Origin: Escherichia coli
GTDB lineage: Bacteria; Pseudomonadota; Gammaproteobacteria; Enterobacterales; Enterobacteriaceae
DNA: 64,000 bases
Reading direction: 5' to 3' (one strand)
Assembly: GCF_003334255.1 (NCBI RefSeq)
Contig: NZ_QOWU01000009.1
Part shown: one piece after another, positions 50,666 to 50,983 of the stretch
Layout of the letters: each line of letters begins with the position of its first letter
How positions within the stretch are numbered: the first letter of the stretch is position 1
Made by a program: the position numbers and the translations under genes
Notes under the pieces: model-generated
Database searches by the model: none
What the model saw: only the letters and a program-made list of their open reading frames with translations
Told to the model about the DNA's origin: nothing

Positions 50666-50983
50666 ATGTCCTGGATTATCTTAGTTATTGCTGGTCTGCT
50701 GGAAGTGGTATGGGCCGTTGGCCTGAAATATACCCACGGCTTTAGTCGTTTGACGCCGAGTGTTATTACTGTGACGGCGATGATTGTCAGTATGGCGCTA
50801 CTTGCCTGGGCGATGAAATCGTTACCAGTAGGGACGGCTTATGCCGTGTGGACGGGTATTGGCGCAGTCGGCGCGGCCATAACCGGCATTGTGCTGCTCG
50901 GTGAGTCCGCTAACCCGATGCGCCTGGCGAGTCTGGCGTTAATCGTATTGGGGATTATTGGTCTGAAACTCAGCACTCACTAA
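50666..50983 (+). CDS. gdx: SMR-family guanidinium exporter Gdx/SugE (105 aa)
   Basis: Internal ATG of 155-aa track ORF ([26 protein letters not shown]); four TM helices with the conserved membrane Glu. Confidence 0.92.

Follow-up and report, generated by a model that had tools for sequence, protein, structure and literature searches.

An ancient and ordinary four-base tail-to-tail overlap interlocks the stop codons of gdx and blc in Escherichia coli

Two convergent genes that leave no space between them raise the question of how each transcript is ended, and of whether such a junction is a selected device or a tolerated by-product. We addressed this question for the gdx (sugE) and blc genes in a 64,000-nucleotide stretch of Escherichia coli DNA (hereafter, the window), where efp, ecnA, ecnB and gdx lie on the plus strand and face blc, ampC and frdDCBA on the minus strand. 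According to RefSeq and the translation, gdx (50666..50983, plus strand) encodes an SMR-family guanidinium exporter of 105 amino acids, and blc (50980..51513, minus strand), supported by its open reading frame (ORF) and by RefSeq, encodes an outer-membrane lipocalin of 177 amino acids. The plus strand reads ...AGC ACT CAC TAA at 50972-50983, and direct reading of 50978-50985 gives CAC TAA CT. The stop codon of gdx is TAA at 50981-50983 (plus), and that of blc is TAG, which on the plus strand reads CTA (50980-50982). The CTAA tetramer at 50980..50983 is common to the two coding sequences, one on each strand; the coding sequences share these 4 bases, and the stop codons share 2 of them (50981-50982). 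The first-pass annotation of this DNA had claimed that the two stops interlock in CTAA, and the sequence, the ORFs and the RefSeq annotation all confirmed it. Chance is not at issue, since the overlap is read straight from two verified frames.

The same annotation had named a correction of the gene ends as the result that could remove the overlap, and we examined both ends for an annotation artefact, that is, a wrongly placed gene end with no real overlap behind it. RefSeq gives an identical 4-base overlap (sugE 2667-2984, blc 2981-3514 in locus L001). The E. coli chromosomes seen to carry it are that of strain ER1709, to which 1,101 bases round the junction are 100% identical, and three further sampled ones, with 94-97% local identity, in which it is annotated likewise. 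Blc matches the crystal-structure sequence PDB 1QWD over residues 19-177 with two substitutions near the N-terminus, and the C-terminus ...QQPGS is the same in both. The solved homologue Gdx-Clo (6WK5, E = 1.5e-32) is likewise 105 amino acids long, with an alignment covering residues 1-103. Both stops are set by frames that are homologous over their full length, and both fall in the same tetramer in 42 species. Nothing was found in favour of an artefact, and the homologous frames, the structure sequences and the 42-species conservation refute it, leaving it a practically negligible probability; both gene ends hold. Note that the ORF list gave only a longer, GTG-started version of gdx with the same stop, and that the gdx start (ATG at 50666-50668) was taken from RefSeq and the 105-amino-acid translation. 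When complete E. coli genomes were searched, 5,425 of 5,426 had the locus, a count that refers to presence of the locus and not of the tetramer. Elsewhere, the ER1709 record calls lysU (labelled lysS) and cadC frameshifted pseudogenes, and the window ORFs are intact there; intact ORFs of 514 and 512 amino acids lie at 26991-28535 and 34187-35725 on the minus strand of the window. ER1709 is the best-matching record, and with these two differences the window is DNA of the K-12 type without being ER1709.

Overlaps of this kind form a described class. When TAA or TAG follows a pyrimidine, the complement is itself a stop codon one base out of register, and the four tetramers that result (CTAA, TTAA, CTAG, TTAG) cause the length-4 peak among convergent overlaps (Lillo and Krakauer 2007, PMC2174442). 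That study counted 58 convergent overlaps in E. coli and 1,890 in 58 genomes, 1,218 of the latter being at least 5 bases long, and it cites an earlier description of the convergent class by Fukuda et al. 2003. The gdx/blc pair consists of two genuine opposite-strand coding genes (RefSeq, 1QWD and 6WK5) that converge with exactly 4 shared bases holding both stops, as in this YTAR class. The stops are interlocked in the same way, and the origin proposed for the class, by stop-codon mutation or read-through, fits the variable Blc tail described below. The junction does not differ in kind from other members, although it is unusually well conserved in Enterobacteriaceae and travels on CMY-2 plasmids. 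The window itself contains seven convergent pairs, with spacings of -25 (pmrR/pmrB), +138, +118, +15 (fxsA/yjeH), +202, -4 (gdx/blc) and +28 bases, two of the seven being overlaps; in this neighbourhood, convergent genes often end close together or overlap. The other overlap, of 25 bases at 5971-5995, joins pmrR (5906-5995, plus) to pmrB/basS (5971-7071, minus), and pmrR-basS likewise appears in a published list of excludons (PMC12288877). The gdx/blc overlap is real, ancient, ordinary and already annotated, in a class described between 2003 and 2007.

To follow the junction across species, we scanned one genome per species and obtained 80 blc loci, 45 of which had a convergent gdx homologue. 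These 45 pairs were all from Enterobacteriaceae except for one from Serratia and one from a metagenome-assembled 'Proteobacteria bacterium', and gdx was not adjacent to the more distant blc genes of the 80-locus scan. The exact 4-base overlap was present in 42 of the 45 loci. In gdx orientation the tetramer was TTAA in 23, CTAA in 15, TTAG in 2 and CTAG in 2, with variation confined to the outer pyrimidine and purine and with the central T and A invariant. The three exceptions were Salmonella diarizonae (L011), in which a 20-base insertion has produced a gap of 16; Raoultella ornithinolytica (L031), in which a 4-base insertion has created an earlier gdx TGA and so a gap of 0; and Serratia grimesii (L046), which has a 7-base overlap, TCATTGA. 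Judged from these sequences, the junction goes back to the common ancestor of most Enterobacteriaceae and has stayed fixed, with all four permitted tetramers in use. On CMY-2 plasmids, a Citrobacter copy of the pair (78% identity) has kept CTAA. Several plasmid hits (H33, H35 and H36) and locus L086 carry the cassette with a partial pair or with frameshifted sugE and blc. Because such partial or frameshifted copies of ampC-blc-sugE occur on plasmids, the pair is dispensable once mobilised.

The protein ends on the two sides of the tetramer behave differently. The Gdx tail, LKLSTH, is conserved. Past its conserved W-[VI]-x-Q motif, the Blc tail is highly variable in sequence and differs in length by one codon between clades, and it nevertheless stops at the same tetramer in each clade. 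Loss of the stop would add 39-40 amino acids to Gdx in most species and 46 amino acids to Blc in most species. E. coli has a special feature here: an in-frame TGA (50977-50979, minus) directly follows the blc TAG, giving tandem stops, since the last gdx codons are ACT CAC. In the E. coli genome of locus L003, whose junction is TAGTGA as in the window, stop loss adds 0 amino acids to Blc; most other species are without this backup TGA, and it is there that the 46-residue extension arises. The Blc tail has accumulated 20-35 amino-acid changes, and no nonsense changes were seen; by a rough estimate, neutrality would predict about 1-2 truncating changes there, so that the count of zero is not significant. 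Third and synonymous positions close to the 3' end of gdx are free to differ, and this free variation ruled out a hidden element at that end. From the alignments, the conservation seems adequately explained by purifying selection on both protein ends together with a tiny mutational target, although conservation in 42 of 45 loci could also reflect selection on the overlap itself.

We then considered how transcription is ended at a junction without intergenic space. The first-pass annotation had argued that transcription of one gene must run into the other unless it terminates within coding sequence. This is logically necessary and agrees with published Rho and excludon data: as no intergenic space exists, termination has to fall inside the coding sequence of the partner. 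A 2007 study had already said as much of terminators and convergent overlaps in general (PMC2174442). No intrinsic terminator (hairpin plus U-tract) was found in E. coli within 300 nt on either strand by consensus and hairpin-plus-U scans, the latter of which took in the window and 44 related loci. In seven other species, weak hairpins followed by T-rich runs (e.g., GACAGCCAACATTTGCTGTT + TTATTTCG) lie some 42-77 nt beyond the gdx stop, antisense in blc; these loci (L006, L007, L011, L014, L015, L032 and L049) come from Citrobacter, Salmonella, Pseudocitrobacter, Klebsiella spallanzanii and Pseudescherichia. They were rejected as terminators of the junction, being absent in E. coli and not conserved. 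In addition, a 17-nt inverted repeat (51030-51046 / 51102-51118; 82% complementary, 55 nt apart) is present inside blc and forms the main stem of the gdx-sense RNA fold, with no U-tract and with a fold that is not significant.

The number of transcripts that arrive at the junction from the gdx side depends on the gdx leader. A guanidine-II (mini-ykkC) riboswitch matching Rfam RF01068 lies at 50602..50648 on the plus strand (score 50.4 bits, gathering threshold 32, E = 3.6e-8), directly upstream of the SMR Gdx gene that starts at 50666, and the two form a guanidine-II riboswitch and Gdx exporter unit. The mini-ykkC aptamer consists of two ACGR-loop hairpins. A promoter-like site found by consensus scan (50556..50583, plus) comprises TTGAAA, a 16-nt spacer and TG-CAAAAT, and upstream of it a terminator hairpin of ecnB is seen at 50496-50523. 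Published data were placed on the window by subtracting 4,326,209 from the MG1655 coordinate, a conversion that we checked on two supplement entries. In these coordinates, Term-seq reported a 3' end with Rho dependence at 50667, and the published gdx transcription start site, 76 nt upstream of that 3' end, falls at about 50591 (PMC7815308). The riboswitch sets the number of polymerases and ribosomes that arrive at the gdx 3' end.

That Rho ends untranslated or antisense RNA in E. coli was reportedly described by Peters et al. in 2012. On the gdx strand, a Rho region centred at window position 50879 has been mapped with a Rho score of 8.4 (p = 4e-73), and DirectRNA-seq read counts on the two sides of this position, 800 nt each (upstream/downstream), were 565/67 untreated and 750/745 with bicyclomycin, which inhibits Rho (Adams et al. 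2021, PMC7815308). Furthermore, the sugE terminator ranks with the strongest measured in vivo, with more than 40-fold read-through in Rho N340S (PMC9160355). These bicyclomycin and Rho-mutant data indicate that Rho stops most transcription on the gdx strand before or around the 3' part of the gene. Rho termination on this strand is under the control of the guanidine-II riboswitch, and when Rho is blocked, transcription crosses blc in antisense. The plus strand thus has the features of a Rho-dependent terminator, namely published read-through that rises on loss of Rho, and RNA that is C-rich and G-poor. The untranslated stretch after the gdx stop (50984..51075, plus), antisense to the 3' end of blc, has C/G ratios (50-nt windows over 50975-51075) of 2.8, 2.25 and 1.9, and its composition makes it a candidate for the loading of Rho on full-length gdx RNA, with a putative rut role. 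The locus resembles the untranslated and antisense RNAs ended by Rho in the work of Adams et al. in its bicyclomycin-sensitive gdx-strand read-through into antisense blc, and in being C-rich and G-poor after both stops; it differs in that the mapped Rho region at 50879 sits inside gdx and mostly represents premature termination linked to the riboswitch.

On the other strand, RNA past the blc stop and antisense to gdx (50686..50979, minus) has more C than G throughout, with C/G ratios of 1.1-2.0, and at 100-200 nt beyond the stop of blc, C was the more frequent of the two in 44 of 45 sequences (the window and 44 related loci). This stretch may be a zone of Rho loading or termination for blc transcripts. 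The C-richness antisense to gdx, however, arises because gdx codons are G-rich and does not count as separate support for a designed Rho site. The Term-seq tables of PMC7815308 contain no entry for a blc-strand 3' end or Rho call. Between ampC and blc, the fold of the minus strand places an intrinsic terminator of ampC at 51565..51592, with the stem GGGUCCGA...UCGGACCU followed by the run UUUCUCC. The 97-nt stretch that includes it folds at -26.3 kcal/mol (z = -5.07) and also holds a second stem-loop. Given this ampC terminator, blc presumably has its own promoter, which would lie within 51514-51564. Further upstream, a Trp_leader-like match precedes ampC at 52752-52841 (minus), but its 21.7 bits fall short of the gathering threshold, 41; it is probably the known frd terminator/ampC attenuator.

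We also weighed a bidirectional, collision-assisted terminator at the junction, in which a small stem-loop would place head-on collisions of the polymerases. Terminators of this class are reported to control hundreds of convergent E. coli genes (as summarised in bioRxiv 10.1101/2022.10.23.513370), and a small palindrome, CTGAAACTCAG, lies at 50963-50973 just before the stops. However, the covariation of the corresponding 7-pair hairpin was 0.122, compared with 0.114 in shuffled alignments, and 106 of 500 shuffles reached 0.122; we consequently rejected the CTGAAACTCAG hairpin (50960-50977) as a conserved structure, its covariation being no better than that of shuffles. Folds of 181 nt were unexceptional on both strands (z = -1.4 and -2.2), a U-tract is absent, and gdx-strand read-through is Rho-dependent, unlike in that class. 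Moreover, with gdx attenuated and blc a stationary-phase gene, heavy transcription of both together is probably seldom. Bidirectional intrinsic or collision terminators as described by Ju et al. 2019, according to the summary in the same preprint, share the convergent layout with this locus. They differ from gdx/blc, which is without intergenic space, a supported stem-loop or U-tracts and is Rho-dependent on at least one strand; at the boundary we found no stem-loop with A- and U-tracts, and the published bicyclomycin data place the plus strand under Rho. We therefore regard a collision terminator as very unlikely here, and Rho-ended read-through as the better description of the junction.

The blc gene is expressed in stationary phase, and gdx is induced by guanidinium. 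In another reading, the lack of a spacer was selected as antisense coupling that keeps guanidinium-induced gdx and stationary-phase blc mutually exclusive, either through complementarity of the 3' ends or through polymerase interference. In its support, gdx-blc belongs to a list of 165 convergent excludons that were present in no fewer than half of 58 MG1655 transcriptomes (ExcludonFinder 2025, PMC12288877), and the overlap has been retained by 42 of 45 species and by copies mobilised onto plasmids. Transcript overlap is, however, unavoidable at this locus, and overlapping coding sequences satisfy the excludon criterion nearly by construction. A riboswitch deletion in strain ZX-1 raised gdx counts from 468 to 26,029 and lowered blc counts from 1,180 to 263 (PMC13064478), as coupling would have it. 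In log2 terms (n = 1), gdx changed by +6.08 and blc by -1.89, but the drop in blc matches that of stationary-phase genes generally: other RpoS-dependent genes changed by -1.1 to -2.1, and among stationary-phase genes otsB stood at -2.14, osmE at -2.11, dps at -2.09, osmC at -1.79 and rpoS at -1.18 (PMC13064478). In addition, the synonymous sites near the gdx 3' end are free to vary, and the spacing is altered in the three exceptional lineages described above (gaps of 16 and 0 bases, overlap of 7 bases). Regarding double-stranded RNA, sugE/blc was absent from the 10 supplementary files of the p19 capture study under the growth conditions of that study (PMC7373196). Neither the p19 tables nor ZX-1 supports a specific effect for gdx-blc, and double-stranded RNA, ZX-1 and synonymous sites together gave no specific evidence for regulation of gdx or blc by the overlap. 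We thus consider selected antisense coupling improbable. Slightly more doubtful still is the broader proposal that the junction is a selected device linking gdx inversely to blc across Enterobacteriaceae and carried onto CMY-2 plasmids with ampC-blc-sugE. If antisense coupling were true, it would add one more excludon, of moderate interest.

Taken together, we consider it very probable that the junction is an ordinary, ancient 4-base tail-to-tail overlap between two genes that are not related, with transcripts ended by Rho, and a tolerated by-product rather than a selected device. Under this explanation, the pyrimidine before the gdx TAA (C-TAA) makes the complement a TAG one base out of register, and blc would have read on until it reached that complementary TAG. 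The arrangement could then persist because the central T and A serve both stop codons together, and because the 2-3 poorly constrained Blc codons before the stop would leave little room for a new upstream stop. A terminator between gdx and blc would not be needed: past its stop, each mRNA would be an untranslated, C-rich antisense RNA of the partner and would be ended by Rho, with gdx mRNA mostly terminated still earlier unless guanidinium turns the riboswitch on. Transcription past the shared stops must make the gdx and blc mRNAs complementary at their 3' ends, and this complementarity looks like a tolerated by-product, not selected regulation.

Much of this was already known: the overlap is in the standard annotation, the class has been described, the transcript overlap has been catalogued and the Rho control of gdx has been published. 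All that is added here is how widely the junction is conserved and that the four tetramers are all in use. The gdx/blc junction is a tidy textbook case of two stop codons that constrain each other, and any removal or tagging of either gene's 3' end, for instance in knockout collections or in work with CMY-2 cassettes, alters the stop or the 3' untranslated region of the partner.
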